Source: a virus
IMG/VR virus record: IMGVR_UViG_2974543594_000001
Location: 6,679-70,678 of that record
Length of the DNA stretch: 64,000 nt
Reading direction: 5' to 3' (one strand)
The position numbers and the translations under genes are program-made. The notes under the pieces are model-generated. The model had not been told where the DNA came from. It made no database searches and worked only from the letters and a program-made list of their open reading frames with translations. Below, in pieces: positions 7,653-64,000 of the stretch. How positions within the stretch are numbered: the stretch's first letter is position 1; every line of letters starts with the position of its first letter.

Positions 7653-7667
7653 ACTCCCGAAGGGAGT
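7653..7667 (-). promoter_or_regulatory. C-GAA-G triloop hairpin (ACTCCC-GAA-GGGAGT) abutting the spanin stop codon
   Basis: Same core (CCGAAGG) and same strand sense as the early-region GAA-triloop hairpins. About 83 nt upstream of the 7570 start. Confidence 0.3.
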
Positions 7668-29100: not shown

Positions 29101-31006
29101 TGTGAGTAACGTCATTAGCAGAGAGATGACTAAAGGCGAACCAAATAACAATGGGATGACTTTTACGCTGAAATACTACAGCAGTTTACAGGGTGCTGAG
29201 TTAGCCAAGTCTGGTAAAAATCAATCTCTGGCAGCTGTAAAAGGTTATACGCCTACTCTGACAGACCCAAATAAAAAGGTCATTGTGGCATCCGTTTTAG
29301 ATGAGCCAAGTCTGGTTCGCAGAGGCTATGTCAGAGGTGCTCAGTTTGCTCGTGACCCGAATGACCTGAGTAAAGAACCAATGTACTACTACCACTCAAA
29401 TAATGGTGGTGAGCCTCGTTGGATTGCTGGGGTAATGAGCACCCTTCAAACCACCGTAGGTGGTGTAAACCCAATCTCAGGTAGAAGTGTTAATGGTTCA
29501 ATGACTCCGGGTATCTGGGGCAGCAAAGAGAAGACTACATTAGCTACCCTGAAACGTGGTCAAATTGATGACCTGTTTGATGCTAATAAGCCTATGCCTA
29601 CTGGATTCAGTAGCTACATGCAGCCTACTCTGAACAGGGCTGGTTCAATCATGGGATACTCTTATCAGATTCCTCGTGCTAACAAAGAAGCACATCTGGA
29701 TATTGATAATGATTTCACTAAAGTAATGGCGGCTTGGGAAGGTCGTATTGCTGAGGAGATTCAGGCTGAGAAATACAATGAGATGCTTCTTCAGAGATTG
29801 CGTGAGATGTATGTGAAGGATGCTCGCCAAGGCAATGCATACCAGTACATCACTATTAATAAGAACTCAACTGACCCACAGCTCAAAGAGATTTATGAAC
29901 TGATGCCAATTGAGATGAAAGAAGCTGCCAAAGAGATTTGGCCTAATGGTGATATCAAGGTACGTAAAGACTTACTGAATAATGCATTTGGTTATCGTGA
30001 GCCTTCAGTACTGAATATGTGGACTGGTCAGACTGGTTACTCTAAAGAGTTCCAGAAAGCCTTTGTGAGTATCGCAGAGACATTCTTAGGTAAGAATGCT
30101 GCTAAGTATCTCCGCTTAGGTGAGCGTGGGATTATGGAATTTGTGAAGGAAATGAAAGATTGGATTGTTGTACGTTCAGTAGTCGTATCAGCAGCCAACA
30201 TTGTTTCCAACATGGTTCACTTAGCGACTGTAGGTGTCAGTCCAGTTACTATGGCTAAAGACATGTCTGTAGCTGTACTGGCTGCTGAAGAATACAGAAG
30301 AAACGAGAAACTCATTAACGAGTATTCTCACTATCTGGCTGTAGGACATAATCCTAAGATGGCTGATGAGTATCAGAGAAAAATTTCTGAACTCAAAGAT
30401 TCACAGGCTCGTAACCCTGTTGCTGATTTAATCAAAGCTGGTTTACTGCCTACCATCGCAGAGGATTTAGGTCAGCAGGATGATTACTCTCTGAAAGATA
30501 AACTGTTAACTAAGATGGATGAATACACTTCTGCTGTTCCAGACAGTGTTAAAAGGGTTGCCAAGGAAGTTGCACTTTCAAGAGATAGTCACATCTACTT
30601 CTTACTGAACCGTTCAATTCAGTATGGTGACTTCGTTGCTAAGTATTCTCTGTATAAACAGCTGACTACTCGCAAGAATAATCCAATGGATAAAGATAGT
30701 GCTATTGCACGAGTAATGGATGAATTCGTTAACTATGACATTCTTCCTAGCCGTACCAGATTCTATCTGGATGCAATGGGATTAACTTGGTTCCTGAACT
30801 ATAAGATTAGAATTCAGAAAGTTATTCTCAGAACGATTCGTGAGAATCCACTGAGAGCACTGTTCCTGATGTTCAGTAATAGTTGGGAATCAAACCTGCC
30901 GAACATCACTGATGCTAACTTAGTGACTGGCAGCCTGAATTATAACATTGGGTTTGGTACTGCATTGAATGGATTCACAGTACACCCGCTGGTTGAACTG
31001 TACTAA
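20117..31006 (+). CDS. virion-encapsidated RNA polymerase (vRNAP, N4 gp50-like)
   Basis: 3629 aa. Central region has T7-like motifs. Motif A region is DGVTNGPFNSIIHLG at about aa 1629. Motif B-like tyrosine is in GGLFYGQSD. Motif C-like is VFDGY at about aa 2044. A D-to-D spacing of about 415 aa fits the N4 mini-vRNAP. Confidence 0.8.
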   Translation: MATGFEKEQQLSGVGAQKAQELNQATQQKRVEMGAPVPGVEIDFPVGSPGYQRAQEAIRLAEAGPKYTREQMTQMLTAAPTAPANTGNINDFSIPEAQPITPEMQANYDAIARTKPFYRKMINPQVSPEFGGTGPFDPNHPNYQAPTQQAQIPANQQYLEDLQYMPMAALQQKYGPQAARDKLSLNIAKANTDEFSGQGIEASDIGNAAQVWLGNTARFATGLGNLALQNTQDLIADVTGRDDLAGQPTLLDQAGIDKPLKEFTEEQRGQYSPGILYEQSVIEAQKEQFKNQGAQREAADIAKGDNPLVAGAKEQLRQFVNTAEQYGDKPGALTTLIAESAPDLLTGGLVGKLATRGAFKELVKEYGEDFATKLAATKYGREKLQDAAENAFVGYVGFQEAGSNMQQTLDQIDGMTNAQLAEKSPMYRDLIAEGMSEEQARRQVRTQAGNVTAAVAGTLGALTGKLAAPFESRIFSPSLLEGTGFSSAASRILGNTLRETVEEASQGATGQFGSNLGVRTSADESQSLSEDIGSNVAESALAGAGMGAFGSAVSETPRAIQEGIQQGRSAFNERQAQREQTRAQDFRNTVNTANESVQQTSPQPDTTATTEAAPATKAVDAVTEPAAKEVFKAIPEEEISSPGSILRIARAIRNRQLDEASRRDLATVGNNVISAYEEALPNIQAQMQSAPEEQKAQYQTAIDNINAVLSNPDVQAIKTTAESFKLTPDEMTKVMESLPSEITPETYQSPEVQQGVKSVLAQMNLDAASITPETADKLINSADAIGLSQQDLNKLRVISATGKAMSQVGQDVRQGSDGFIGIQQYQQGIFRALALNDTKRAQGLLDHLNRFATHMETKADAFEQAAQNFTGNRPVEVINPTTGQPYMSLDGNPMTYHPVRSKNLVQEIRNDAAAVRQAHTITGQLVDGKPVDVPAQSEPMASEDVNSQEQTPAPEATSEEAPVETTSEQTSTEAPTEASESTNQEEVQTPAETTETQPEAVTEAPAQVNEEPVQGELFDKPETVESDIQIQEEPTSVETDLMDESQLDLGLEKGVNYDILNGLQTETVRSDAKSTSDVDKEYQATNQVKKWFKPTGKRSAFLRTSNFSGRLNSIFTNGSNPITQIQNLFKGFINPEQVTAKEVSVLRQFAGLVPAVEQSLIQSWGKLTPEGQRIFWETYPVEYFDEVRNINGENVYFLPQPVIEAMTAGMMQWFVRNASETLFNDDRAVMDILGLDNKTRPTVEQVDLLRDVGTDRQNIIDDLSREIFGILGITADPNTPISVRDTVSKALAAEVLNVMINAGLVQETVVKNSELAAVGSIKVNSSNIKNSRVFIKMNPESEASLQLVKLMEDSNDLLGQLTNPSRERANAFFDVPPKGQSTKVKNGGGQDIPEKMLAARNKASKQPHFINVGLHDLLLDKLGIEWTGRMLGIQSEENANGAHLKSIQGSNRTIERDINTLVNGLTRMVEAGKDLATTPIYFAYNVISNYRMMLNSGDLNPQSAKLHRELVTVAPSTIELNNPLHGAFLDYAIAQGLDISIDKLSSNTARERLNKAIDTGLFRDAINILKAAEIQDSISDADAETLLQAVNAGKEKTKTLHALYAQAQYELAVEQGKESFQTHIMLELDGVTNGPFNSIIHLGLKDINQDLLDKLEKGGLFYGQSDRLYNDAAEEPGFLDLYKTAAAGTQEYVNNMMDSVRNIPNRIAALSSKSKRQQQKELREIERLKNQMRVTLAASKLIGDVNIVEGEDVEHPIQIGRGLLKNPVTVTVYSGGANAINRKIAMGIVNGYYEAITEALRAVDSATTVEERDAAIAHIQDLTQTTNELTSARVFRNGDWVNIGEPINLGSDVTQFKFSGEQIDAITQNIKIGIGAAVNQSIATEFGTVVKRGKMMVYAAAVMHEVFMSRWNKEVSRLEEELRKAGKLSKFESLSQQQYNDIKQYLIGSMPIFNSWFTANNLDVDQLNTGILLSEEARQPVDNYRMESRGRRELDGKMRRSTFGVDMPTYTEPGTRVMPLLVQSVEAAMQAIARDINPNNALNVFDGYINAVEHLESGSQAINQGVFQSWNEFDLLQDFTNRFEQAMEGVDVDAELDVVAANSLQQSFDSIAEDLGLEPGIYPISPEILNDFLKELKKEAATQTAIKQGLLGGEAITSINQMTGANIPFNVQNGKQVTEQTDELIDTRTPLEQLVANTELPTVESISLPLGRVTIPPSRQMAEALDRNGRTLRGHEGVKVLAKGDVVAAVREAAKSLPSRQNKITGFILDKIEKAIPNDINVYVGSPEALSDVQWKLNPGRRVKFTSNFLGLTEGQNIYIGSQSIETVMHELIHAATANTVQAYYTDPASLTPNQRTEVASIEALMTKFVNEYTYVNPETNSVVSLINDHIESGDMAQATAEFIAWGLVNPRMIDAMTQKTVAGKVTNVLKQMADAIKRLFAIGSNPEINSYWSRLLGHTVALTDTTTSVSTADETSFAQRNANNINRLDAETLFNKLNPGKATQDHINHLTDTLDYLQSNIVRVIKQSGQQISGLDHFQEKLLVDSIDPEIDKSPDALIAHGFDMSEKEAFVFKMLQVSMKYGLENFSPSVLVARSLYAQARDQLKVSDFLTDPNNTSATEMALAKQRYDAVFGNTAITTDATGRTNRLANFIALAETHEPLRNKLAQMSVKRTRSAPASTIREHIGDLVNSILTWLSGLATKSLSNATVATRLTKLAKNISHVDSEARDNLLGRVERGSEEISQTVQDKLNAFGHMVRNQLLKVQKIVPKSVAFGINAGSAVFNDQDAQDVRTAITTIMMNIHQNGKLGTLAELVNEFIGSNETNQTIHTLLTQKNMAADRARQIIREMVPGMIEQTFVSLNQTEKEAIQKVVANTDMAYLFANGYSLARLNELLTNPNELAKEIASMESQLNSIGAQNAPFYIKSAKGLAKQMVHGVSPLVYQLPNAASIARLIGTGKVRPNDTVVNSATQLIDTLASLSALTELSQADKETVSNVISREMTKGEPNNNGMTFTLKYYSSLQGAELAKSGKNQSLAAVKGYTPTLTDPNKKVIVASVLDEPSLVRRGYVRGAQFARDPNDLSKEPMYYYHSNNGGEPRWIAGVMSTLQTTVGGVNPISGRSVNGSMTPGIWGSKEKTTLATLKRGQIDDLFDANKPMPTGFSSYMQPTLNRAGSIMGYSYQIPRANKEAHLDIDNDFTKVMAAWEGRIAEEIQAEKYNEMLLQRLREMYVKDARQGNAYQYITINKNSTDPQLKEIYELMPIEMKEAAKEIWPNGDIKVRKDLLNNAFGYREPSVLNMWTGQTGYSKEFQKAFVSIAETFLGKNAAKYLRLGERGIMEFVKEMKDWIVVRSVVVSAANIVSNMVHLATVGVSPVTMAKDMSVAVLAAEEYRRNEKLINEYSHYLAVGHNPKMADEYQRKISELKDSQARNPVADLIKAGLLPTIAEDLGQQDDYSLKDKLLTKMDEYTSAVPDSVKRVAKEVALSRDSHIYFLLNRSIQYGDFVAKYSLYKQLTTRKNNPMDKDSAIARVMDEFVNYDILPSRTRFYLDAMGLTWFLNYKIRIQKVILRTIRENPLRALFLMFSNSWESNLPNITDANLVTGSLNYNIGFGTALNGFTVHPLVELY

Positions 31007-32105: not shown

Positions 32106-32543
32106 TTAGTTGCGAGCAAAGAGAGAACGAGTTTTCTGGCCTTCTAAGTATGCATCTACATCTGGGTCAGCATCGTCTGGGGTCTGAGGTTCTTCTTCTG
32201 GTTTGGTGTCAATTACATCTTCACCGACCACTGGAAGCTCCGCAGGAGCTTCTACAGCTTCTGCCCTCATGATTCCATGCCGAGGTTCAACGGTACGCTC
32301 TATGACCTCTGTACGAAGCCCTACACTGCCTTCAGATTTCTCTGTGCGGTTAATTGCTTGGGTTGGTACATGAGATTCAGTCAGCTTCTGTGGGACGATA
32401 TCCAGAGTGGCTGAGTAACCATTTTCACCACGACCTGCTTTCAGGTCGATAGTGATATCGTTACCTGGAGCTACATTGATGACACGGAAAGCATAGTCTT
32501 TCAGAGCTTCCAGGATTTCATCTTGGTTTAAAGTTATCTGCAT
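32106..32543 (-). CDS. hypothetical protein with acidic C-terminus
   Basis: 145 aa ORF. Confidence 0.4.
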   Translation of the reverse strand: MQITLNQDEILEALKDYAFRVINVAPGNDITIDLKAGRGENGYSATLDIVPQKLTESHVPTQAINRTEKSEGSVGLRTEVIERTVEPRHGIMRAEAVEAPAELPVVGEDVIDTKPEEEPQTPDDADPDVDAYLEGQKTRSLFARN

Positions 32544-45042: not shown

Positions 45043-45390
45043 TTATTCATGCTTCGTAGAGGCACGTAGAAGTGATTCTACGACGATTTGTTCAGGAGAC
45101 TTATCGTATCCCTTGCCCGGCTGAGTAAACGCTTTAGAATCGTTCTCAACGAGTCTATCAACGATACTCGCGCAGTTCATTGATTCAATGTTCATGTGCT
45201 TAGAAATAGCTGCCATTAACATTGAAATGAAGTATCTGCGGTCTGTTTCGTACAGTTTCTGTTCCTCAGCTGATTCAAAGTCTACCTGAAAGTGTTCAGG
45301 TATAGGTTTACCAGCAGGACTAAAATTAATAACACCAAATTTCACTATTTTCATTTGAGCACCTATGCAGATGTGAAGTAACCAAAGCAA
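45043..45390 (-). CDS. hypothetical protein
   Basis: 115 aa ORF. True start may be the internal MKIVKFG. Confidence 0.35.
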   Translation of the reverse strand: MLWLLHICIGAQMKIVKFGVINFSPAGKPIPEHFQVDFESAEEQKLYETDRRYFISMLMAAISKHMNIESMNCASIVDRLVENDSKAFTQPGKGYDKSPEQIVVESLLRASTKHE

Positions 45391-45403
45391 CTGCCGGAGG
45401 CAG

Positions 45404-46084
45404 TTACTTGATTTGCACCATTGTTAACCGTCCCTTCTCGAACACTGCACCAGTGTCGATATAGTTTTGGTTATGGTATTGCACAGGGTCTTTGGCAGGT
45501 GTGTGTCCGAAATAGAATTCGTCAGCACCTTTAATGACAGTACCTCTTGAGTTTTGGTTTTTAACCATACGTTCACGATTCCAAAGCAAAGCTTCTACGT
45601 CAACGTCTTTACCAAACTCGTACTGATTTGAAGGGTAGTCTGCATGGCAGATAACAATAGTTTTGTCATCTACTGAGACTTCAATGATACCCGGCAGGTC
45701 TGCTGCCTGAGTAAAGAGTTCGAGCACCTCTGGTTTCTGTTCTTCTGGAACTTCCAAAATCCATGTGCCTCCATTATGAAACCAGTTCATATAGGCTACA
45801 TCTCCATCATGGGTATTTGGTTCAGAAGCTAATGCATTGAGTGCCATAACTTCATGGTTACCCAATACAGTTTTAAACCAAGGTTCCTTGATTAGGCGTA
45901 AACAGCCTAAACTATCAAAACCTCGGTCAATTAAATCACCAACAGAAATGAGTAAATCAGTTTGAGTATCAAACTGGTTAGCCCATAACTGCTGTTGTAA
46001 TTCTGTGAGGCAGCCATGCAAATCTCCGACAACGAAGATTCGTTTATATTGGCTACCATCAATCTTCATATAGAGATTTTTCAT
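45404..46084 (-). CDS. calcineurin-like metallophosphatase (lambda PPase/ApaH-like Ser/Thr phosphatase)
   Basis: 226 aa. GDLHGC, GDLIDRG and GNHE motifs. Confidence 0.75.
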   Translation of the reverse strand: MKNLYMKIDGSQYKRIFVVGDLHGCLTELQQQLWANQFDTQTDLLISVGDLIDRGFDSLGCLRLIKEPWFKTVLGNHEVMALNALASEPNTHDGDVAYMNWFHNGGTWILEVPEEQKPEVLELFTQAADLPGIIEVSVDDKTIVICHADYPSNQYEFGKDVDVEALLWNRERMVKNQNSRGTVIKGADEFYFGHTPAKDPVQYHNQNYIDTGAVFEKGRLTMVQIK

Positions 46085-47595: not shown

Positions 47596-47675
47596 TTCGA
47601 TTTACCTTTTCAGATTGGGATAAAATTACATTGTTTGAATGAAGAGAGTTAATTTCTCTTTCTTTTTCCGAGGCA

Positions 47676-47690
47676 AGCGCCGGAGGCGCT
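47676..47690 (-). promoter_or_regulatory. GGA-triloop hairpin AGCGCC-GGA-GGCGCT upstream of the AAA+ gene
   Basis: 6-bp GC stem with a 3-nt loop and no U-tract. 80 nt upstream of ATG 47595. Confidence 0.25.
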
Positions 47691-47826
47691 TTACCCTTTA
47701 CCGAACACAGGAATCACTCTGTAACCTTGATTGCGAGCAATCCGGGCTACATGTGTTTTCTTGGTTCGAATAATAAGAGTGCTGGGAATGCGAAATACAT
47801 CCCAAGCAATAGGAGATTTGGACACG

Positions 47827-51909: not shown

Positions 51910-51926
51910 AACGCACGGAGTGCGTT
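51910..51926 (-). promoter_or_regulatory. GGA-triloop hairpin AACGCAC-GGA-GTGCGTT overlapping stop of 51925..52335
   Basis: 7-bp stem with a 3-nt loop and no U-tract. Confidence 0.25.
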
Positions 51927-52682: not shown

Positions 52683-52708
52683 CTAACCAAGGATAGCGCC
52701 GTAGGCGC

Positions 52709-52882
52709 TTAGACAGGATAAGTTTTATCGAGACACTTGTTTAAGTTATGGCGATTGATGTACTCACGACGCTCTTCTTGTAGACGAGCTATTTCAGCTT
52801 CGTGCCCAACAATCGCTTTATCTATCTCAGCGATATTATGCTTATGTCTGTCCCAATCGAATTTGTTCATTGGCTCAGTCAT
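52709..52882 (-). CDS. small protein translationally coupled to dut (not in the ORF track)
   Basis: 57 aa: [57 protein letters not shown]. Its ATG overlaps the dut stop (TAATG). Confidence 0.35.
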   Translation of the reverse strand: MTEPMNKFDWDRHKHNIAEIDKAIVGHEAEIARLQEERREYINRHNLNKCLDKTYPV

Positions 52883-54461: not shown

Positions 54462-54739
54462 TTATCGGTTCCTTTTGGATTGATAGCCGAATTTGGAAGA
54501 CAGCTGATACTGTAGCTATCACTGGTATAACTAATAATTTTTCGAGTTCCGGGTACATAAAGTACCCAGCAAGTTACTTCAGCATCATCATCATGAATCC
54601 GTTGAATATCGACTTTCTCGAACGTTGGATTGATACCAGAATCGCTGCCGTAGGCAGCCGATAAGAAACCAACCATAATTGCAGATAGAATTACGGTAAG
54701 CAGTGCTACATCGAGCACTACTCGTCTATAACTACGCAT
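54458..54739 (-). CDS. single-TM membrane protein with small beta-rich C-domain (possible NfeD-like partner of SPFH)
   Basis: ATG at 54739 (M15 of the track ORF). One TM helix, then about 60 aa soluble domain. The NfeD idea rests on layout only. Confidence 0.35.
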   Translation of the reverse strand: MRSYRRVVLDVALLTVILSAIMVGFLSAAYGSDSGINPTFEKVDIQRIHDDDAEVTCWVLYVPGTRKIISYTSDSYSISCLPNSAINPKGTDK

Positions 54740-55598: not shown

Positions 55599-56837
55599 CT
55601 ACGAAAGCATATAATTACTTTGACGGATATATTTAGACAGGTTGTTAGACAGCTTAGCGACAGGGATACGCTTACCAGATATCTGAGATGCAATAGCAGA
55701 CAGCATGTTGCTATCAGCAATCTGTGCAAAGATATCGATGTAGTTCTGACGTACATGGTTCATGTACAGAGGATGACACTTAAAGCAATCATGGATTGCA
55801 ATCAGTGCAAATGGCTTATGAGCCAACATCTTCTCGATGATTTCAATGAGTTCTCTTCGAACCCAATGAGGAATCATGTGAACATTGAGGTGGTCAATAA
55901 ACTCAATCAGAACAGCAGATACAAATTTATGGGATTCAGTTAATTTAAGAGCCTGTGCAAGCCTTGTATCATCTACTGAATAGTTGACGATACCTTTCGT
56001 ATTAGAAGCCGTCAGAAGCTCATACACACGCTGTACTTTGAGCAAATCGTAGTTAGCACGACGATTCATCTCACGAACAATCATCCCATCTACAGAGTGA
56101 ATGACATTCGCTGCAAGTGACAGACCAGCTTTCTGACCTTGGTTAACCCAATAGCGGTGAGTGAACGAGCTATTCAGCTCATTAACTTCAAAGCTATCTT
56201 CCATTGGAACCATGACTTTAACTACAGCATTGAATCCATCTGGAAGAGTCCAGTGATGTTGTAGAGCATTTGCCTGCCATAAGGCAATCAAGTCATCACG
56301 GAGCATGTTTGCACCTGGAGCAATGATTTGAACCATCTCATAGAACTTCTGAAGCTCTATGGTGTTCTCACCAAACAGGTTTACAGGATTAGCTCTGGAC
56401 CCATAGAAATGGGTCATAGTCGCATCCTTGGTATGAGAACGTTCAATCTTGTCCAGTTTGCCATCCAGTAAGTCACCCATGACTTTATAGCCATCGGTGT
56501 ATGCATCATGACGTACATCAGGATTAACCATGTTCACAGTCTCTGCTGTGACTTTACAGCCTGTCAGTGCTGCCATGCACTGTAGACCAGATGCAGTAGC
56601 ATCCATACCTACCAGATATCCTGTAGGCAGTCCTGCCTTGGTATCTTCATAGCACAACTTACCTGCGTAGAATTGTGCAGGTTCATCTGCATCATCCACC
56701 AAACCAGATAAGTTATCTTTATTTGCTTCGAACCAGTTTAACCGGTCTTCAAACAACTCCTTGTCTAAACCAAAGGAGTTAGCAATATCTAATTTGATAT
56801 ACTGGAACGGAGTGAACGTCTGCATTTTGAGTCTCAC
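55599..56837 (-). CDS. phage RNAPII large subunit (N4 gp16-like; C-terminal half of a T7-like RNAP)
   Basis: 412 aa. GMDATASGLQCMAALTG resembles T7 DGSCSGIQHFSAM (motif A). THFYGS is motif B-like. IAIHDCF is motif C. Confidence 0.8.
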   Translation of the reverse strand: MRLKMQTFTPFQYIKLDIANSFGLDKELFEDRLNWFEANKDNLSGLVDDADEPAQFYAGKLCYEDTKAGLPTGYLVGMDATASGLQCMAALTGCKVTAETVNMVNPDVRHDAYTDGYKVMGDLLDGKLDKIERSHTKDATMTHFYGSRANPVNLFGENTIELQKFYEMVQIIAPGANMLRDDLIALWQANALQHHWTLPDGFNAVVKVMVPMEDSFEVNELNSSFTHRYWVNQGQKAGLSLAANVIHSVDGMIVREMNRRANYDLLKVQRVYELLTASNTKGIVNYSVDDTRLAQALKLTESHKFVSAVLIEFIDHLNVHMIPHWVRRELIEIIEKMLAHKPFALIAIHDCFKCHPLYMNHVRQNYIDIFAQIADSNMLSAIASQISGKRIPVAKLSNNLSKYIRQSNYMLS

Positions 56838-57043: not shown

Positions 57044-57272
57044 CAGGAATGATTCCCAGCAGCCTCCCTGCTGAGTCCAGACCAAAGATGGTCTGTTTAA
57101 TTTCATCCTCTGACATATAGAACAATGCACATTTAGTTTTGTCGTGATTCTCACCACAGAACTTTTCACATGCAGGATGGGTACTACAGAAGTGAGTTTC
57201 CAACTCATCCGGGATATCACGTAACAACAGAGTGATTTTGATGAGTTGTTCTGGTTTAGATAATTCAGCCAT
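57036..57272 (-). CDS. small Cys-rich protein, distant member of the same family
   Basis: 78 aa. ELSKPEQLIKITLLL N-terminus and a C-x5-C-x3-C...C pattern. Confidence 0.4.
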   Translation of the reverse strand: MAELSKPEQLIKITLLLRDIPDELETHFCSTHPACEKFCGENHDKTKCALFYMSEDEIKQTIFGLDSAGRLLGIIPDE

Positions 57273-58195
57273 TATTCCTCCACTGGAACGAGTTCTTTAT
57301 CAGCCAACTGAAGTATGGCTTTACGATAAGTATTACCCTGATAGGACACATGGTACCCCTGGCAATAAGTACGACCACGTTTGTCATACTTGTGAGTCAG
57401 ATAAAACCTGTTTCCTTCGTTAATTAACATGGCAAATACCTTCATGGATTCACGTTCCATTTTCAGGAACGATTCCACTCGTGCTTGCCATTCATCATGA
57501 GTTTCCTCACTCTTTGGTGAGTCCAGATGCTTACGGTTATCACGAATATTTCGGATAACACGGTCATCAAGTGCAAACGCTACTGAATTAAATCTGTTGA
57601 TATTATCCAGACAGATATCCAGTTCATGATGATTGTTCTTCAGGATTAGAGAATCCCATTCAATAGATAGATACCCACTGCCTTTGTTATCTTTAACAGG
57701 TCTTGGTGGGACTACCATTGGAGGAAGATACTGATACTGATTGATGAGTTTGAGAGTTTTTGGTTCAAGCTGGATACGACTAACCAATTCCATTGAACCA
57801 GTGTTACTGAGCTTGGCTGGAATTACATCTACCAAATCTACGATTGCTGCTAAACCAATAAGTTCTCCAGCAGTTCGTATGGCTTCTTTCTGAGACATGT
57901 TTTTAATCATGCCTGAAACCATACCAACTATCTGGGTGTACTTGGCTACACCGAACTGAGCTAATGAACCAGCTACATCGATATAGAAATCTTCAAATAT
58001 ATCTGAATCCAGAATGGCTAATCGACGGTTCTTACTTTCAAAGTAATCACCCATCTGCCATTCTTTGGCTGCCTCTACTGCCTTATTAACTAGCGCCATA
58101 ATATCTGGTGACTCTTTTAATTCTTTTCTTATGAGGTCACGAGCTTGATGTTTTGAATACATAGTTTCAATGAGGAGTTGAGTGTCATAATTCAT
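57272..58195 (-). CDS. phage RNAPII small subunit (N4 gp15-like; N-terminal half of a T7-like RNAP)
   Basis: 307 aa. YDKRGRTYCQGYHVSYQGNTYRK matches the T7 RNAP DxRGR...PQGND region. Confidence 0.75.
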   Translation of the reverse strand: MNYDTQLLIETMYSKHQARDLIRKELKESPDIMALVNKAVEAAKEWQMGDYFESKNRRLAILDSDIFEDFYIDVAGSLAQFGVAKYTQIVGMVSGMIKNMSQKEAIRTAGELIGLAAIVDLVDVIPAKLSNTGSMELVSRIQLEPKTLKLINQYQYLPPMVVPPRPVKDNKGSGYLSIEWDSLILKNNHHELDICLDNINRFNSVAFALDDRVIRNIRDNRKHLDSPKSEETHDEWQARVESFLKMERESMKVFAMLINEGNRFYLTHKYDKRGRTYCQGYHVSYQGNTYRKAILQLADKELVPVEE

Positions 58196-58431
58196 GATAT
58201 GGCTTCCATTGATTTATGGATTTGAGCGACGAAGCTATCGTCGGGATTGTGCATCCTGTCATCACTTAAAGGACAACATTCGCAATATACGTTTGGGCAT
58301 CTAAACGTTTTACATATTTCATCCTTTGGTTTGTAATCCTCATTCTCGTATAGTCTTAATATCCCTATAAGAATGATTATGAGTTCTTGGTTCATGGACA
58401 CCTCAATAGGTGCAGACAACAAACCTGTCAT
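58192..58431 (-). CDS. small Cys-rich protein, MNxELIxIL paralog family
   Basis: MNQELIIILIGIL...CKTFRC...CECC. Confidence 0.5.
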   Translation of the reverse strand: MTGLLSAPIEVSMNQELIIILIGILRLYENEDYKPKDEICKTFRCPNVYCECCPLSDDRMHNPDDSFVAQIHKSMEAIS

Positions 58432-58906
58432 CTAACAATGGTTCGATACGTTTCTTAACGTCTCTCCACTGAAGTTCTCCAGCACCACATCCCGGTCGAG
58501 GCAATACAACTTTCTGCCAACCATATTGGTTAGCCAGTTGAACCAACTGTCTGCATGAACGTTCAATCAAATCGATTTTAGCTTTACATGCCCAGCCTGG
58601 GATTGTCTGACCTTCCGGGAAGAACTTATGCTTAACAAAGTTTGTACCATCACTGATTTCAGTGATTGGTTTAACTGGAAACGATACTACCCAGATACCA
58701 TTGTGAGTTAGTAATGCATGTACATTATTGCCTTCCTGCGCAATCTTAAGTCCCAGCACTTTATCTAAGCCCGGAACTACCATACGCATTTGCTTGGCAA
58801 TACCTGCACCCATTACAGCAGCACCATTACTTTTTACAAATCCATTGGTTGTAATGCATACGGCATCACAATCCATCTCAAGGATATTGCCTTTGGCTTC
58901 TAACAT
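58403..58906 (-). CDS. Macro domain protein (ADP-ribose binding/hydrolase)
   Basis: 167 aa. GNILEMDCDAVCITTN...AAVMGAGIA and the C-terminal LPRPGCGAG diphosphate-binding loop. Confidence 0.6.
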   Translation of the reverse strand: MLEAKGNILEMDCDAVCITTNGFVKSNGAAVMGAGIAKQMRMVVPGLDKVLGLKIAQEGNNVHALLTHNGIWVVSFPVKPITEISDGTNFVKHKFFPEGQTIPGWACKAKIDLIERSCRQLVQLANQYGWQKVVLPRPGCGAGELQWRDVKKRIEPLLDDRFVVCTY

Positions 58907-58938
58907 GATTACCTCTGATTGTTGAATTCCACCCCTAA

Positions 58939-58951
58939 CAGCCGAAGGCTG
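58939..58951 (-). promoter_or_regulatory. C-GAA-G triloop hairpin CAGCC-GAA-GGCTG, candidate vRNAP hairpin promoter
   Basis: 5-bp stem and GAA loop on the template (+) strand. About 33 nt upstream of the Macro gene start. No U-tract. Confidence 0.4.
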
Positions 58952-58972
58952 AGGAGCGAAGCGACAGAAAAA

Positions 58973-59203
58973 CTAGAACGTCTGAATAACTTTATGAAGA
59001 CAGAATATATAGATATTTTCAGTTAAATCTTTTCTGGTAAAGTAGCAATTATCACATTGAACACCTGAGCATTTAGGGATTCTATGTAATCTCATAAGCC
59101 TGCATAATTCAGGTTTACTCTCGATGAATATAATTCCTGAGCTTGAAGTATATTCAACCCTATGACATAGGGATTCTATTATTTTAATTAGTTCCCTATT
59201 CAT
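58973..59203 (-). CDS. small Cys-rich protein, MNxELIxIL paralog family
   Basis: MNRELIKIIESLC...CSGVQCDNC. Confidence 0.5.
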   Translation of the reverse strand: MNRELIKIIESLCHRVEYTSSSGIIFIESKPELCRLMRLHRIPKCSGVQCDNCYFTRKDLTENIYIFCLHKVIQTF

Positions 59204-59385
59204 AGTATTCTTTCACCTAATTCAAGAAATTTAGTTATATAAAATTTTTCTGAGGTAAATACTTTTTTCATTAAAGGGCAGGAATCACATTCAACACTAT
59301 CACAACTAAATAAATCTTTAGTCTCATGACATAGTTTTTCTGTACTACGAATAGCTCTAAGAATAACTATCAATTCATTATTCAC
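59200..59385 (-). CDS. small Cys4 protein, MNxELIxIL paralog family
   Basis: GTG start. MNNELIVILRAI...C-x8-C-x4-C-x2-C. Confidence 0.45.
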   Translation of the reverse strand: MNNELIVILRAIRSTEKLCHETKDLFSCDSVECDSCPLMKKVFTSEKFYITKFLELGERIL

Positions 59386-59557
59386 AAGAAATACCTATTA
59401 CATATCTTATGCCCATTATGTATTCAGTAGGTCCAGATAAGATGCAATATGGGCATCTAATTTTTCTGCACTTTGGATTATTAAAACTATTTAAGCAGAT
59501 GTTATAATTCTCCTTCTTAGATATCTCATTAAGAATAGTTAATAATTCTTTATTCAT
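59378..59557 (-). CDS. small Cys4 protein, MNxELIxIL paralog family (not in the ORF track)
   Basis: 59 aa: MNKELLTILNEISKKENYNICLNSFNNPKCRKIRCPYCILSGPTEYIMGIRYVIGISCE. GGAGAG RBS. Confidence 0.5.
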   Translation of the reverse strand: MNKELLTILNEISKKENYNICLNSFNNPKCRKIRCPYCILSGPTEYIMGIRYVIGISCE

Positions 59558-59724
59558 ATTATTCTCTCCCCAAATTGAATTAAGTGGTATGCATAATTAT
59601 CAATATGTTTTCTATCAATACAACAATTACGACATGATATTCCAGCACAATTTACATCTTTAATTTTATAACAAAGATGTTTATCCAAAATGGATGAGAG
59701 AATAATAATTAATTCTTGGTTCAT
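59554..59724 (-). CDS. small Cys4 protein, MNxELIxIL paralog family (not in the ORF track)
   Basis: 56 aa: MNQELIIILSSILDKHLCYKIKDVNCAGISCRNCCIDRKHIDNYAYHLIQFGERII. Stop overlaps the next ATG (ATGA). Confidence 0.5.
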   Translation of the reverse strand: MNQELIIILSSILDKHLCYKIKDVNCAGISCRNCCIDRKHIDNYAYHLIQFGERII

Positions 59725-59733
59725 ACATACCCC

Positions 59734-60000
59734 TTAAAAGGGCATGGTACTTCCAATGACTACACTGAAAATAGCATCCCTGAGAGTTTTGAAATAACGT
59801 GTACCAACATAGTACATGTTCTTTTTATTAACAGGGCGCTTGAGAATGTATGCTGATGTACCATTAATGTGGACACCCCATAATTTCTCTTCACGACTGT
59901 AAGTCACTGTATACTCAGGAACAAATCCCAGATTAACAGTTCTTACTTTACTGGTTTCTTTCACTTTCTTTGACATATTGATATCCTCTTGGATTGACAA
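59734..60000 (-). CDS. hypothetical protein
   Basis: 88 aa basic protein, unrelated to the paralog family. Confidence 0.4.
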   Translation of the reverse strand: MSIQEDINMSKKVKETSKVRTVNLGFVPEYTVTYSREEKLWGVHINGTSAYILKRPVNKKNMYYVGTRYFKTLRDAIFSVVIGSTMPF

Positions 60001-60044
60001 CTATCTAACAAGACATTGATATTGGACTACCAATATCGATAGCC

Positions 60045-60269
60045 CTATTTATAGAGTCTTTTATTAGTAACTATTATTTGATTGGAATATCCAAATACTT
60101 CTTTAATACCTAAAGGACAATGGTCACATCCTCTTTTTGTTCTACACCATTCTAATTTATCAAATAGTATGTACTCACAGAGTTCATCTATTGGACCTAT
60201 ATCATGTGCCATTCGAGATGTAGCTTTTAATCTCATGGCTCTGAGTATTTCTATTAATTCAGGATTCAT
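60045..60269 (-). CDS. small Cys4 protein, MNxELIxIL paralog family
   Basis: MNPELIEILRAM...C-x10-C-x5-C-x2-C. Confidence 0.5.
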   Translation of the reverse strand: MNPELIEILRAMRLKATSRMAHDIGPIDELCEYILFDKLEWCRTKRGCDHCPLGIKEVFGYSNQIIVTNKRLYK

Positions 60270-60483
60270 TTAATACTCTACTGGTTTTAGATACACCTGA
60301 TGGATAGTTACTTTCTTGTTCAACAGATGCAAATATTGGGCAGTTATGGCAACTGACATGAGCGCATCTTGGAATAGAATCCATATTATCCATATCGCAT
60401 ACAGTCCTACATAAATCATCTTTGGTTTCTCTGTAGCTGCTATTTACTATCGAATAGATTATTTGAGTTAATTCATTATTCAT
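60259..60483 (-). CDS. small Cys-rich protein, MNxELIxIL paralog family
   Basis: MNNELTQIIYSIV...CRTVC...CAHVSCHNC. Confidence 0.5.
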   Translation of the reverse strand: MNNELTQIIYSIVNSSYRETKDDLCRTVCDMDNMDSIPRCAHVSCHNCPIFASVEQESNYPSGVSKTSRVLNES

Positions 60484-60512
60484 GACTATCTCTCAGCGGC
60501 ATGTTAAAGCCC

Positions 60513-60680
60513 TCATTTCGAGGGCTTAGCGATTGTTCTGATGAGGACACCTAAGTAATAGGGTAGAGATATGATTCCAACCATTACACAGAACAGGAAC
60601 CATACTGCTGATGCTACAAACCAGAACAACCCAATGAGCGTGCGCAGCACGATGAACAGCAACAACAGGAATATATTCAT
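60513..60680 (-). CDS. small hydrophobic membrane peptide (not in the ORF track)
   Basis: 55 aa: MNIFLLLLFIVLRTLIGLFWFVASAVWFLFCVMVGIISLPYYLGVLIRTIAKPSK. ATG overlaps the upstream stop (ATGA). Confidence 0.4.
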   Translation of the reverse strand: MNIFLLLLFIVLRTLIGLFWFVASAVWFLFCVMVGIISLPYYLGVLIRTIAKPSK

Positions 60681-60859
60681 TTGATGACCTCACATGAATC
60701 AGTAGTTAACTTGATTGCACTACGAGGAATCCCGTTGGCAATCTTCTCTTTGACACACTTCATTTGATGCTGGTATTGCACTGTATCTTCATCAACAATG
60801 GTTATTGTTATCTTACCGAAACAAACCATAAACAGTAGAAACACTGCTAATAGACGCAT
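60677..60859 (-). CDS. small secreted or lipoprotein-like protein
   Basis: ATG at 60859 (GGAGG upstream). MRLLAVFLLFMVCFGK signal-like N-terminus. The track start is TTG inside the upstream terminator. Confidence 0.4.
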   Translation of the reverse strand: MRLLAVFLLFMVCFGKITITIVDEDTVQYQHQMKCVKEKIANGIPRSAIKLTTDSCEVIK

Positions 60860-60868
60860 GTCCCCTCC

Positions 60869-60896
60869 AAAAAATAAAGGGAACCCGAAGGTTCCC
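60869..60896 (-). terminator. strong intrinsic terminator after GC-rich 143-aa gene
   Basis: GGGAACC-uucg-GGUUCCC then UUUAUUUUUU on the minus strand. Confidence 0.65.
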
Positions 60897-60904
60897 AATA
60901 TCGA

Positions 60905-61336
60905 TTACGATGCCAGTGCATTCAGAATCGCACTGACTGCGCTGGTGGATGCGGTATGCTCGGTCTGCTCTTTACGGCGATAGAGCTGAACCTGCAACTT
61001 CGGCAGCTCCTGACCGCTACCAGCTTCCAGTTCACCACCCATTTTGACCAGAGCTTTCAGCAGCTCATTACGAGCAGCAGCCTGGTTGTTCCAGACTTCG
61101 TTGTTACCACGGATAACCAGCTCGCTCATGGTATCCAGCGGCAGGCCATACGGCAGAGACAGGAACGTATCCACCATATCCCCGTTTTCATCAGGCATCG
61201 GAACGGTTACGCCGATGTTGATGAAGAATTCAGCTTGCGGACGGTCGCCAGACTGCTGACGATTTCCGTTACCCTTACCACCCAGAGCTGCGCCGATGAT
61301 AGAACGAGCTTCGTTAGAGTTGTTGATAGTAGCCAT
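60905..61336 (-). CDS. hypothetical protein on GC-rich island
   Basis: 143 aa. Host-like GC and codon usage. Flanked by upstream GAA-triloop hairpins and a downstream terminator. Confidence 0.5.
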   Translation of the reverse strand: MATINNSNEARSIIGAALGGKGNGNRQQSGDRPQAEFFINIGVTVPMPDENGDMVDTFLSLPYGLPLDTMSELVIRGNNEVWNNQAAARNELLKALVKMGGELEAGSGQELPKLQVQLYRRKEQTEHTASTSAVSAILNALAS

Positions 61337-61379
61337 GATAAATACCTCTCAAGTTAAACGGTTTTTGGATTATTCCACC

Positions 61380-61394
61380 AGCGACGAAGTCGCT
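61380..61394 (-). promoter_or_regulatory. C-GAA-G triloop hairpin AGCGAC-GAA-GTCGCT, candidate vRNAP hairpin promoter
   Basis: 6-bp stem and GAA loop. About 44 nt upstream of ATG 61336. Confidence 0.4.
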
Positions 61395-61431
61395 CTTACA
61401 GGAGAAAGGAGAACTTAAGGAAGAACTCCAC

Positions 61432-61448
61432 CACCGTCGAAGACGGTG
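61432..61448 (-). promoter_or_regulatory. C-GAA-G triloop hairpin CACCGTC-GAA-GACGGTG, candidate vRNAP hairpin promoter
   Basis: 7-bp stem and GAA loop. Core GTCGAAGAC is identical to the hairpin at 63902-63918. Abuts the stop of 61456..61833. Confidence 0.4.
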
Positions 61449-61455
61449 ATGAAGA

Positions 61456-61833
61456 TTAGTACCGGAAGATAAAGACTGGTTTACCCAGCTTGGTCATGTA
61501 GTCAATCATGTGCTTAGTACCACGGGATTCACCATCCCAGAATGCTACCAGCACATCAGCTACATCACCCATGTCTTCATTACGAATGAAGCCTGCACGT
61601 CTAGGCTCTGACTTCCAGTCAGCAGGGAACTTATGGATAGGTAGCTTGTAGTGATAGTACCAAAGGTTAAACCCTGTGATATCAGTACCACGAGCCATAC
61701 CACACACCAGTTCTGAATCATCTGCGATGCTACCATCCATAACTAATTGCTTGATGCATGAGTCCATGTACACCATGTCGGTGAAGTCCCTTCCACCGGC
61801 TACGATTACTTTCAAAAGACCTCCTGAATACAC
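61456..61833 (-). CDS. DUF2493-like (SLOG superfamily, Rossmann-fold) protein
   Basis: 125 aa. VIVAGGRDFTD...GMARGTD...FPADW...AGFIRNEDM...VLVAFWDGESRGT matches the DUF2493 block order. Confidence 0.55.
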   Translation of the reverse strand: MYSGGLLKVIVAGGRDFTDMVYMDSCIKQLVMDGSIADDSELVCGMARGTDITGFNLWYYHYKLPIHKFPADWKSEPRRAGFIRNEDMGDVADVLVAFWDGESRGTKHMIDYMTKLGKPVFIFRY

Positions 61834-62054
61834 GGATGATTGAACGTAACAATGCGACGAGGAGCGCAGTTATCACTACGTGTTACCTGCTTAGTCAGCT
61901 CCCTCTTCTTCATGCGAGCTACGTCTGCTTTGGTACCCTGGATTAATGACTTACGCATCATGGTTATCTCCATGCTTAATAGCTAAGTAAACGACGATGC
62001 CACCTACAATGGCACCAACTAAAGACCAGAATAACTCTGTGTACCAGATATCCA

Positions 62055-62294
62055 TTAACGTACTCCGTTTAAAATTCTGTCGTGTTCTACAATCCCAGAA
62101 GCTTTAGCTTTCAGTTTGATTGCACGAATAGCACTAGCTTTATCTGTATGCAGCTTTCTCTGCATATCTTTAATTTCTGAATCAATTAATAAATCTACAT
62201 ACAGATAGTTGATTAACCACATGGCTGTAAGAGCTGATTCAATTACAAGTGGTTTAGGTATGCACTGTTCACTACTTACTGAACATGTATCCAT
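62055..62294 (-). CDS. hypothetical protein
   Basis: 79 aa ORF. Confidence 0.35.
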   Translation of the reverse strand: MDTCSVSSEQCIPKPLVIESALTAMWLINYLYVDLLIDSEIKDMQRKLHTDKASAIRAIKLKAKASGIVEHDRILNGVR

Positions 62295-62693
62295 TTAGTT
62301 CACCTTCGGTACTAAGTTAATTAACTGTTTAGCGATAGCTTCACACTCATCGACACAGTACTCCTCATCTCTCCAGACTCCGTCTGTGTACAGGAATGAG
62401 TGCTCCATAACTGTGCCCTTGTACTTCTCCGGGCATTTCATCCTGTCACCTGCATGAGCACAGTCAAATCCAATGACAGTCTTACCGTTAGACCAGTCTG
62501 GTATTCCTTGATAGGTGATACCTCCATGTGCTGCGATGTATATATCATCGTCCCCGCACCCATCGAACCTTCTGTTCTCAATGGCTGCTGGAACTTCTAC
62601 ATAACCACAATGATGTGAACCATCATTAACCAGTAGTACACATGCATTCAGGCCAGCTTCAGTAACCCATGACTTAACAACTTTGTATGACAT
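62295..62693 (-). CDS. hypothetical protein (Cys/His-rich, possible hydrolase)
   Basis: 132 aa. GSHHCGYV, AAHGGITY and GFDCAHAGD blocks. No confident family assignment. Confidence 0.4.
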   Translation of the reverse strand: MSYKVVKSWVTEAGLNACVLLVNDGSHHCGYVEVPAAIENRRFDGCGDDDIYIAAHGGITYQGIPDWSNGKTVIGFDCAHAGDRMKCPEKYKGTVMEHSFLYTDGVWRDEEYCVDECEAIAKQLINLVPKVN

Positions 62694-62695
62694 GA

Positions 62696-62815
62696 TTAGT
62701 TCTCCAGTATTCTTTTGATGAATGAGACTAGTTTGTAACGTTCAATGAATGGCAGATAACTATGTTTCTCCCATTCAATTTGAACACACTCTAATACTGT
62801 CATTTGACTGAGCAT
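62696..62815 (-). CDS. small protein (not in the ORF track)
   Basis: 39 aa: MLSQMTVLECVQIEWEKHSYLPFIERYKLVSFIKRILEN. GGGGAG RBS 4 nt upstream. Confidence 0.3.
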   Translation of the reverse strand: MLSQMTVLECVQIEWEKHSYLPFIERYKLVSFIKRILEN

Positions 62816-62890
62816 ATAGCTCCCCTGACCACCTAGATAGTCTCTAAGTGGTCTATGGTATGTTTGTGTGGGATTGGGATAGTTAAGGTA

Positions 62891-63202
62891 TTAGTTTGAA
62901 TACTCTTCTATGAGCTTGATAAGTATGTCTCCATGACATGCTTTAGGCTTACAGAAACAACCTAATGTCTTACCTTTAAGCTCAAGTAGTTGTAGATATA
63001 GGTCAGGCTCCTGATGTAGTCTCTGACGTATGTACTGCTCGTACATTGCAATGCATAATTCTCTGCCATATGCTTGAACTGTATAAGGATTTCCCCATAC
63101 ACTACCTCTGCCGATATAGACATCGTATGGTTCCTTGTACTTGTTGACTACACGAGTGGATGGTTCTGGAATTGAACCAATGATTGGTTTGATGATTCCC
63201 AT
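62891..63202 (-). CDS. DUF4326 family protein
   Basis: 103 aa. YIGRGSVWGNPY and C-terminal GCFCKPKACHGD match DUF4326 hallmarks. Confidence 0.5.
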   Translation of the reverse strand: MGIIKPIIGSIPEPSTRVVNKYKEPYDVYIGRGSVWGNPYTVQAYGRELCIAMYEQYIRQRLHQEPDLYLQLLELKGKTLGCFCKPKACHGDILIKLIEEYSN

Positions 63203-63231
63203 TTGAGTACCTCTGGCTTATTCATCCAAGA

Positions 63232-63244
63232 GTACCGAAGGTAC
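63232..63244 (-). promoter_or_regulatory. C-GAA-G triloop hairpin GTACC-GAA-GGTAC, candidate vRNAP hairpin promoter
   Basis: 5-bp stem and GAA loop. 30 nt upstream of ATG 63202, in a 256-bp AT-rich non-coding region. Confidence 0.4.
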
Positions 63245-63423
63245 AAGAGATAGTTTCTAAGTGATGTATAGGATTTGTATAGTACCTAGAAGAGATTTAA
63301 ATAGGTACAGGTAAGCTACCCTATTACCTCTTATTAAAACCTCTCACAATGCTTCCTAGAGCGTTATAGCGATATGTATCTATATACAGTACTTACTATC
63401 TATCAGATGTGTTGTGTGAATTG

Positions 63424-63441
63424 ATTTTAAATACCTGCTCC
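63424..63441 (-). terminator. hairpin CCTGCTC-cgaa-GAGCAGG downstream of first early gene
   Basis: 7-bp stem. On the minus strand it has a UUCG loop followed by GUAUUUAAAAU (weak U-tract). Confidence 0.35.
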
Positions 63442-63458
63442 GAAGAGCAGGCATACGG

Positions 63459-63794
63459 TTATTTATTGAGGTGCTTAGCTACCAGTGCATCGAATACCTT
63501 CTTAACGTCTTCATCTGCTCCAGCCATAGCTTTGGTTGCTTCTGCATGTACCTCTGCTACTTCTTTAGCTGCTTCCATAACATATTTGGTACGGAAGATT
63601 TCACCCTCTACCTCACGTTTGATGGCACGATGATGACGGAGATTCTCAATCTCATCATTACCCCATTCGGTTAAGGCTACAGCCATATTTGCGGTATTAG
63701 CTACAGCTACTGCACCACGCTCAATAGCATTGAGAGCAGATACAGTTGAAGAAGATACAGCACCGAAGATACCAATAGAGTTTACAGGTTTCAT
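63459..63794 (-). CDS. hypothetical early protein
   Basis: Second ATG (MKPVNS...) has GGAG 6 nt upstream. The track start 63800 abuts the GGAG. Confidence 0.45.
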   Translation of the reverse strand: MKPVNSIGIFGAVSSSTVSALNAIERGAVAVANTANMAVALTEWGNDEIENLRHHRAIKREVEGEIFRTKYVMEAAKEVAEVHAEATKAMAGADEDVKKVFDALVAKHLNK

Positions 63795-63819
63795 ACACAT
63801 CTCCAGACAATTTAAAGGA

Positions 63820-63837
63820 GCCTATGTATCCATAGGC
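63820..63837 (-). promoter_or_regulatory. hairpin GCCTATG-tatc-CATAGGC 20 nt upstream of first early gene
   Basis: 7-bp stem. Followed on the minus strand by CCTTTAAATTG. Confidence 0.3.
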
Positions 63838-63901
63838 AGACCATGTCAAATATATGGCATATAGCTCATACGAGTAAGCAGACATGGATGCATTACTCCA
63901 G

Positions 63902-63918
63902 TAGAGTCGAAGACTCTA
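63902..63918 (-). promoter_or_regulatory. C-GAA-G triloop hairpin TAGAGTC-GAA-GACTCTA, candidate vRNAP hairpin promoter
   Basis: 7-bp stem and GAA loop. Core GTCGAAGAC shared with 61432-61448. About 100 nt upstream of the first early gene. Confidence 0.4.
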
Positions 63919-63933
63919 GATTGTGTGAAGTAT

Positions 63934-63944
63934 GGGGGGGGGGG
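63934..63944. repeat. poly-G homopolymer tract (10-11 G)
   Basis: Directly visible run of G in an otherwise AT-rich early leader, 15 nt upstream of the 63902 hairpin. Confidence 0.6.
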
Positions 63945-64000
63945 TACTTTGGTTAAAATTTATTTGTGTGAAGTAATACTACTATCAGACAAAATTATAA

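Follow-up and report, generated by a model that had tools for sequence, protein, structure and literature searches.

In this study, we analyzed a 64,000-nucleotide stretch of viral DNA (positions 6679-70678 of the IMG/VR record IMGVR_UViG_2974543594_000001, referred to here as the window) and found that five small DNA hairpins in its last 6 kb, designated H1 to H5, are very probably the early promoters of an N4-like phage, read by the RNA polymerase encapsidated in its virion (vRNAP). A previous sequence-only reading had put the hairpins forward as candidates for this role, and our comparisons, together with the analogy to phage N4, support it: the phage is N4-like and encodes a vRNAP homologue, the loops lie on the template strand, and the start register, conservation, and gene context of the sites all match. 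Over positions 58000-64000, the window matches the right end of Klebsiella phage KpCHEMY26 (MN163281) with 100% identity; this therapeutic-candidate phage is classified in the Schitoviridae, subfamily Humphriesvirinae, genus Pylasvirus. Every gene in the last 6 kb of the window is on the minus strand, and the KpCHEMY26 record carries no annotated promoter in that region; nor are the five sites annotated as promoters in any other record that we examined. We found no mention of promoters or hairpins in papers on KpCHEMY26, Pylas, TR2, or the subfamily, or in the family taxonomy paper. Hairpin promoters for vRNAP are textbook knowledge for N4, and further N4-like phages have provided predicted or mapped examples; the finding is thus correct rather than surprising, and it leaves the current understanding of how these phages begin infection unchanged. 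What it provides is a precise predicted early transcription map for KpCHEMY26 and its relatives, comprising five starts, operons, and terminators, which is useful for phage engineering and for the application of vRNAP domains as readers of single-stranded DNA (ssDNA) templates.

An exhaustive scan for perfect hairpins with a 3-nt loop recovered exactly the five hairpins listed in the sequence-only reading: H1 (58939-58951, CAGCC-GAA-GGCTG), H2 (61380-61394, AGCGAC-GAA-GTCGCT), H3 (61432-61448, CACCGTC-GAA-GACGGTG), H4 (63232-63244, GTACC-GAA-GGTAC), and H5 (63902-63918, TAGAGTC-GAA-GACTCTA). Its description of their anatomy also held, as all five share one orientation and a GAA loop closed by a C-G pair, with stems of 5, 6, 7, 5, and 7 bp, respectively. 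The GAA loops are on the plus strand, the strand that serves as template for early genes on the minus strand, so that each site is a template-strand hairpin (stem of 5-7 bp, loop of 3 nt). The proposed distance of 30-100 nt to the early genes agrees with the 33, 44, 96, 30, and 102 nt that we measured from H1 to H5 to the start codons at 58906, 61336, 61336, 63202, and 63800. The core GTCGAAGAC, reported as identical in two of the hairpins, is indeed common to H3 (61432) and H5 (63902), and the GC-rich 143-aa gene said to be preceded by two hairpins lies behind H2 and H3 (53.5% GC versus 41.6% for the window). A count of perfect plus-strand C-GAA-G hairpins whose stem has 5 bp or more, set against 2000 dinucleotide shuffles, gave 5 observed versus 0.01 expected between 58001 and 64000, and 9 versus 0.135 in the whole window. 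The five sites are all confined to the end of the genome, upstream of early genes and no more than 5.1 kb from the record end, with H5 only 91 nt from it; that this end would be injected first is taken from N4.

A further feature, absent from the sequence-only reading, is a CC dinucleotide on the template strand 11-12 nt from the loop centre in all five hairpins. Read 5' to 3' on the template, H2 to H5 fit the pattern TCCA-N8-GAA, whereas H1 has CCCC in that place. We rejected the view that H1 is out of register (its nearest TCCA is 4 nt too far), because in the relatives it is CC at +1/+2 that proves to be the relevant motif, and the CCCC of H1 includes it. The published determinants of N4 promoters are a template-strand hairpin, a 3-nt loop with a 5' G and a 3' A, a C:G closing pair, A or G at -11, and G at -10, G at -8, and C at +1 (PMC4496689). 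The N4 rules applied here come from a review of 2015 and a cryo-EM paper of 2026. All of these are found at the window sites except the G at -8, the stem base contacted by R904 of the N4 enzyme. The loop reads G(-10)-purine(-11)-A(-12) and is closed by C:G, being C-GAA-G in all five, and the template C at +1, 11 nt from the loop centre, would correspond to a start with GTP.

The first 50 kb of N4 contain exactly three template-strand C-GRA-G hairpins. They are P1 (90-102, GTTGC-GAA-GCAAC), located 96 nt from the genome end; P2 (557-573, AAGAAGC-GGA-GCTTCTT), located ahead of gp2 and known as the hairpin in the crystal and cryo-EM structures; and a third one (4546-4562, AAGCTGC-GGA-GCAGCTT), presumably P3, located just upstream of gp15. 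In P1 the register is TCCA-TAAGTTGC-GAA and in P2 it is TCCA-AAAGAAGC-GGA, where CC occupies +1/+2 and the RNA starts with GG. The window sites therefore resemble the N4 promoters in the template-strand hairpin with a 5-7 bp stem and a G-R-A loop closed by C:G, in the -10G, the -11 purine, and the CC at +1/+2, 11 nt from the loop centre with the spacing of P1 and P2. They also resemble them in their clustering at the genome end that in N4 enters first, with one site about 90 nt from that end, one ahead of gp2, and one ahead of the RNAPII genes. However, N4 has three promoters and the window five, including a tandem pair ahead of the gp2 homologue and a site ahead of a DUF4326 gene. Moreover, two of the three N4 loops are GGA while those of the window are all GAA, and the N4 heptamer GC-GRA-GC, with the -8G contacted by R904, is not kept in the window.

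On the basis of this register, transcription on the minus strand is predicted to start at 63899 (H5), 63227 (H4), 61429 (H3), 61376 (H2), and 58934 (H1), giving predicted 5' untranslated regions of 28 nt for H1, 40 for H2, 93 for H3, 25 for H4, and about 99 for H5. The RNA is predicted to begin with GGA from H5 and with GGG from H1. From its position, H5 would be the promoter of the first early gene (63459-63800, minus strand), and H4 would drive the DUF4326 gene (62891-63202, minus strand) along with its downstream neighbours. H3 would be the upstream member of the tandem pair ahead of the gp2 homologue, and it may also slow or stop transcripts coming from upstream. H2 is the putative proximal promoter of the same gene and the positional counterpart of N4 P2. 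The 143-aa product of this gene (60905-61336, minus strand) is 34% identical to N4 gp2 (E = 2e-18), the ssDNA-binding cofactor of RNAPII. Finally, H1 would serve the macro-domain gene (58403-58906, minus strand) together with the genes for the two RNAPII subunits; by position it corresponds to the third hairpin of N4, the one ahead of gp15. The subunit 1 gene (57272-58195, minus strand) encodes a homologue of N4 gp15 (45% identity over 153 residues, E = 3e-48), and the subunit 2 gene (55599-56837, minus strand) a homologue of gp16 with a T7-like RNA polymerase domain (Pfam RNA_pol, E = 5.2e-16; also annotated in Pollock).

The proposed reader of the hairpins is encoded elsewhere in the window, on the plus strand at 20117-31006. 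The predicted 3629-aa product is a homologue of N4 gp50, with 32% identity over 3112 aligned positions, and at the sequence level it is a T7-like virion RNA polymerase of giant size. Its polymerase domain aligns to the N4 enzyme with E = 8e-50, and the counterparts of the catalytic Asp residues of the N4 mini-vRNAP, D559 and D951, are conserved. Depending on the alignment, identity between the two enzymes is just 25-32%. In a pairwise alignment, R904 and R119 of N4 correspond to Arg, W129 to Tyr, and D901 to Gly, and the contact residues K267, K268, and K849 are not conserved, but these assignments are insecure at 25% identity with gaps nearby. For that reason the comparison of contact residues was dropped as evidence.

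Comparison of the early regions of eight relatives (Pylas, MY01, Pollock, SP154, FSL SP-058, B2, TR2, and FSL SP-076, the last over a stretch that ends short of the H1 position) revealed C-GAA-G hairpins at the same positions and at a near-constant distance to the orthologous start codons. While H2 is unchanged across the nine phages and in 7 viral contigs, the stems of other sites differ. The H4 orthologues, 36-37 nt from the DUF4326 start codon, have stems GTACC, CTCAC, or CCCTC; the H3 stem is swapped in TR2 for ACTGGC-GAA-GCCAGT at the same place; and H1 in Pollock is a compensatory variant, CTGCC/GGCAG. The -1 base of H1 is C in the window and A or G in the relatives. C-GAA-G is invariant in 44/44 sites and the CC register is kept in 43 of them, the H1 of TR2 being displaced by 1 nt, and an A at -4 is found in all 47 sequences. 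Across 27 distinct sequences, 135/135 stem cells are paired, with changes on both sides in 4 of the 5 stem pairs, and sliding the partner columns by 1-3 lowers pairing to 26-47%. We consider that the real evidence for conservation is the positional orthology of sites with unrelated stem sequences.

The pattern extends beyond these relatives. Whereas a search with a single gp2-like protein as the query returned Pylas as the sole match, an alignment of gp2 homologues used as the query led to 41 viral contigs. A template-strand C-GNA-G hairpin stands upstream of the gp2 homologue in 31 of the 41, and in 29 of these 31 the CC is in the early-promoter register. N4-type lineages have GC-GGA-GC and so keep the -8G, while the KpCHEMY26 lineage (7 contigs) has a GAA loop, a variable -8 base, and the tandem pair. 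The comparison indicates that three of the N4 promoter determinants are general across schitoviruses, namely a C-GRA-G loop, a ruler of 11 nt, and a start at CC, and that the -8G belongs to the N4 lineage specifically.

In the mechanism that we propose on the model of N4, the hairpin-bearing end of the genome would enter the cell first, and host gyrase would supercoil the entering DNA in such a way that each inverted repeat could be extruded as a cruciform. On the template strand, the C-GAA-G triloop may then form an unusually stable mini-hairpin with a sheared G.A pair, while host SSB would melt the weaker TTC hairpin on the non-template strand. The injected vRNAP would bind the template hairpin through loop and stem, would be activated allosterically as in N4, and would start RNA with GG opposite the CC at 11-12 nt from the loop centre. 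The RNAs made in this way would span the first early gene, the block of the DUF4326 gene, the macro-domain/RNAPII operon, and, from the tandem pair of promoters, the gene for the gp2-like RNAPII cofactor. What the sequences establish is the anatomy of the sites, their non-randomness, their register, their covarying conservation, and the homology to N4 of both the enzyme and the downstream genes, while extrusion, the roles of SSB and gyrase, and initiation itself are expected from the N4 model. The likeness to the d(GCGAAGC) mini-hairpin lies in the C-GAA-G core with its sheared G.A pair, which should favour the template-strand hairpin over its TTC complement. However, the most stable form requires GC-GAA-GC, and in the window the pair next to the closing one is T-A in two hairpins, A-T in one, and C-G in H1 and H4, which are thus of the less stable CC-GG type. 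Therefore, the stability of the window hairpins should be below that of N4 P1.

Several observations weigh against the assignment of the hairpins as vRNAP promoters. The base at -8 is C in H1, A in H2, T in H3, C in H4, and T in H5, and it also varies across the clade. As the -8G is a determinant of the N4 enzyme, its lack argues for altered specificity, not against the mechanism; if a vRNAP reads an early code without it, its specificity would have diverged from that of N4. The -11 recognition element of the N4 vRNAP (K114, R119, and W129) aligns only weakly with the KpCHEMY26 enzyme. Nearest-neighbour DNA folding does give the expected hairpins, but the energies are modest (-2.8 to -6.9 kcal/mol) and without strand asymmetry. 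The energy model lacks a term for the sheared G.A triloop, which accounts for the missing asymmetry, and the argument from strand asymmetry consequently rests on the published mini-hairpin data. The covariation count is partly circular, as the sites were collected by a search for perfect hairpins. Finally, H3 immediately follows a stop codon and looks like a weak terminator.

The last point leads to the question of whether the hairpins act in RNA instead, as terminators, attenuators, processing sites, or stabilizing stem-loops of the early transcripts. In its favour, H1 as well as H3 directly follows a stop codon, a simple terminator scan flags H3 as terminator-like owing to its tail TTCTTCCT, and the Pylas record annotates the H3 homologue (L003 4067-4099) as a terminator, similar small hairpins being labelled in the same way in Pollock and Pylas. 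However, a Rho-independent terminator consists of a GC-rich hairpin followed by a U run, and H1, H2, H4, and H5 have none, H3 having just UUCUUCCU. In agreement with the absence of a U-tract noted in the sequence-only reading, no contiguous T run follows any of the hairpins on the sense strand, and four of the five lack a T-rich tail altogether. The clear terminators of the region are of a different type, with a UUCG tetraloop and then a U run. Transcribed into RNA, the loops would become UUC triloops, for which no special stability is known, and Rfam contains no matching family. In addition, what is invariant is the C-GAA-G loop and a CC on one side at a fixed distance, not the stem sequence, which fits a protein reading single-stranded template DNA, and the N4 promoter register is matched exactly. 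We therefore regard a role in RNA as very unlikely, and the 'terminator' label in Pylas is probably an annotation error.

A second alternative, whose chances we put slightly lower again, is that the hairpins are promoters for another enzyme, e.g., the phage RNAPII with a gp2-like ssDNA-binding protein. The Pseudomonas phage LUZ7 offers a precedent, as its middle promoters are GC-rich hairpins located about 15 nt upstream of the start. The window itself contains a second class of hairpins in the middle-gene region, and at least two hairpin-reading activities may thus exist. Nevertheless, the early sites precede the genes for RNAPII and its cofactor themselves, which means that their reader must already be present at injection. 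Their loop, register, and location at the genome end match the vRNAP promoters of N4, and not its middle promoters, which have been described as AT-rich. Moreover, the loop centre is always a purine in the early class but free to vary in the second. LUZ7 also provides a parallel for reading H1 to H5 as vRNAP promoters. ONT-cappable-seq of this phage identified nine early transcription start sites, most of whose promoters are hairpins, and two strong tandem hairpin promoters drive Drc, an ssDNA-binding RNAPII cofactor that is a functional analogue of gp2, although the two proteins have been described as structurally unrelated. A conserved 3-nt loop, a G start, more than three early promoters, and a tandem pair ahead of the RNAPII cofactor gene are common to LUZ7 and the window. 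In contrast to the window, where the CC stands at 11-12 nt, LUZ7 starts 13-14 nt from the hairpin centre, and its stems can be as short as 4 bp.

A third proposal is that the hairpins are ssDNA replication signals, such as priming sites or an origin element. It draws on a mini-hairpin review that cites GCGAAGC-type hairpins at phage origins and in the ssiA priming signal (CCGAAGG). However, all five sites lie at a promoter-like distance (25-99 nt, counted from the predicted start) upstream of start codons and in the direction of transcription, the conserved CC equals the +1C and GG start of N4, and the gene context runs parallel to that of N4. Such a role is accordingly yet more improbable than the two discussed above. 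Chance inverted repeats, for which nothing speaks except the small size of the hairpins, are practically excluded by the excess over the 0.01 expected and by the retention of the five sites with compensatory changes in eight other phages.

We built a covariance model from the aligned sites of the nine phages and N4. H1 to H5 score 28.4, 34.5, 33.2, 30, and 34.5 bits, respectively, and no sixth early site was recognized by the model on either strand of the 64 kb, the next best score being 12.9 bits (E ~0.6). Since the window sites were part of the training set, these scores show that there is no sixth site but cannot count as finding the five anew; what is independent is the rule for which N4 was the only source. 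The C-GAA-G hairpins at 762, 7653, 49078, and 53494 on the plus strand and at 46282 on the minus strand were considered as extra promoters and rejected, as they lack the CC and score at most 12.9 bits. The one at 7653 is a plus-strand terminator with a T run. We also rejected as a promoter loop the GCGAAGC at 58956-62, which has a 2-bp stem only and a G, not a C, at +1. This d(GCGAAGC) heptamer (58956-58962) is on the template strand 4 nt 3' of H1 and equals the core of N4 P1. Its surrounding sequence, AGGAGCGAAGCG, is invariant in 8/8 phages whose H1 region was compared, even where the H1 stem has changed.

The second class of hairpins deserves separate mention. C-GNA-G hairpins number 19 on the plus strand of the window versus 2 on the minus strand, and 8 of the 14 plus-strand hairpins outside the early set have a CC 14-15 nt from the loop centre. 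Five of these eight are between or within middle genes (45389-45405, 47675-47691, 51910-51926, 52695-52709, and 54644-54658), and the others are at 32234-32252, 60639-60651, and 29450-29464. They have GGA, GTA, or GCA loops and mostly 6-7 bp stems, and their CC is 3 nt farther away than in the early class. The class is kept in four relatives (Pylas, Pollock, SP-058, and TR2), where stem changes are compensatory and loops vary among GGA, GAA, and GTA, and no member of it was found in positions 1-50000 of N4. Some of these hairpins are labelled 'terminator' in the Pollock and Pylas records, yet they lack U runs. The hairpin at 52695 is directly upstream of a tetraloop terminator, and that at 54644 is intragenic. 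The class may represent hairpin-type middle promoters as in LUZ7 or another kind of ssDNA signal. If the former, they could be read by RNAPII with the gp2 homologue, as LUZ7 suggests, unlike the AT-rich middle promoters of N4. We offer only tentatively, and with more doubt than belief, the idea that the clade of enterobacterial N4-like phages formed by the Humphriesvirinae and Triduovirus runs two hairpin-promoter codes on one template strand, an early one with a GAA loop, an 11-nt spacing, and no -8G, and a second one with C-GNA-G and a 14-15-nt spacing.

The surroundings of the five hairpins complete the predicted transcription map. The first early gene is followed, upstream of H4, by what reads in the sequence as a terminator-like hairpin (63434-63451, minus strand), with UUCG as its tetraloop and a tail rich in U. 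The gp2 homologue is followed by the intrinsic terminator GGGAACC-UUCG-GGUUCCC with the tail UUUAUUUUUU (60879-60896, minus strand). Sigma-70-like sites are depleted in the 57-64 kb region, with 7 found versus 23.3 +/- 5.0 expected and only 1 on the coding strand, which fits early transcription that is independent of the host RNA polymerase. In the KpCHEMY26 and Pylas records, the gp15 and gp16 homologues are labelled 'virion RNA polymerase subunit', which is probably an annotation error. Between the terminator of the gp2 homologue and H1 there are about nine small AT-rich open reading frames on the minus strand (31-40% GC, 58973-60898), and no promoter hairpin of either class was recognized ahead of them; they may be transcribed by read-through or from a promoter of an unrecognized type. 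In SP154 and B2, an extra hairpin, ACTTAC-GAA-GTAAGT (L006 6245-6259 and L008 5151-5165, respectively), adjoins the H4 homologue and has no CC in the start register.

As for the genome end, the 769-bp terminal repeat of Pylas includes the H5 homologue, which is about 65 nt away from where the genome is predicted to end, and the left 1.5 kb of the KpCHEMY26 record contains no annotated copy of a terminal repeat. In all nine phages, a stretch of 9-11 consecutive G (read as C on the sense strand) starts 24-25 nt past the H5 loop centre and is flanked by a repeated GTGTGAAGTA motif; in the window it occupies 63935-63945. N4 has nine consecutive C at 32-40, on the upstream side of P1. The record of SP-058 begins exactly at the G run, and the run may therefore mark or adjoin the physical end of the genome.

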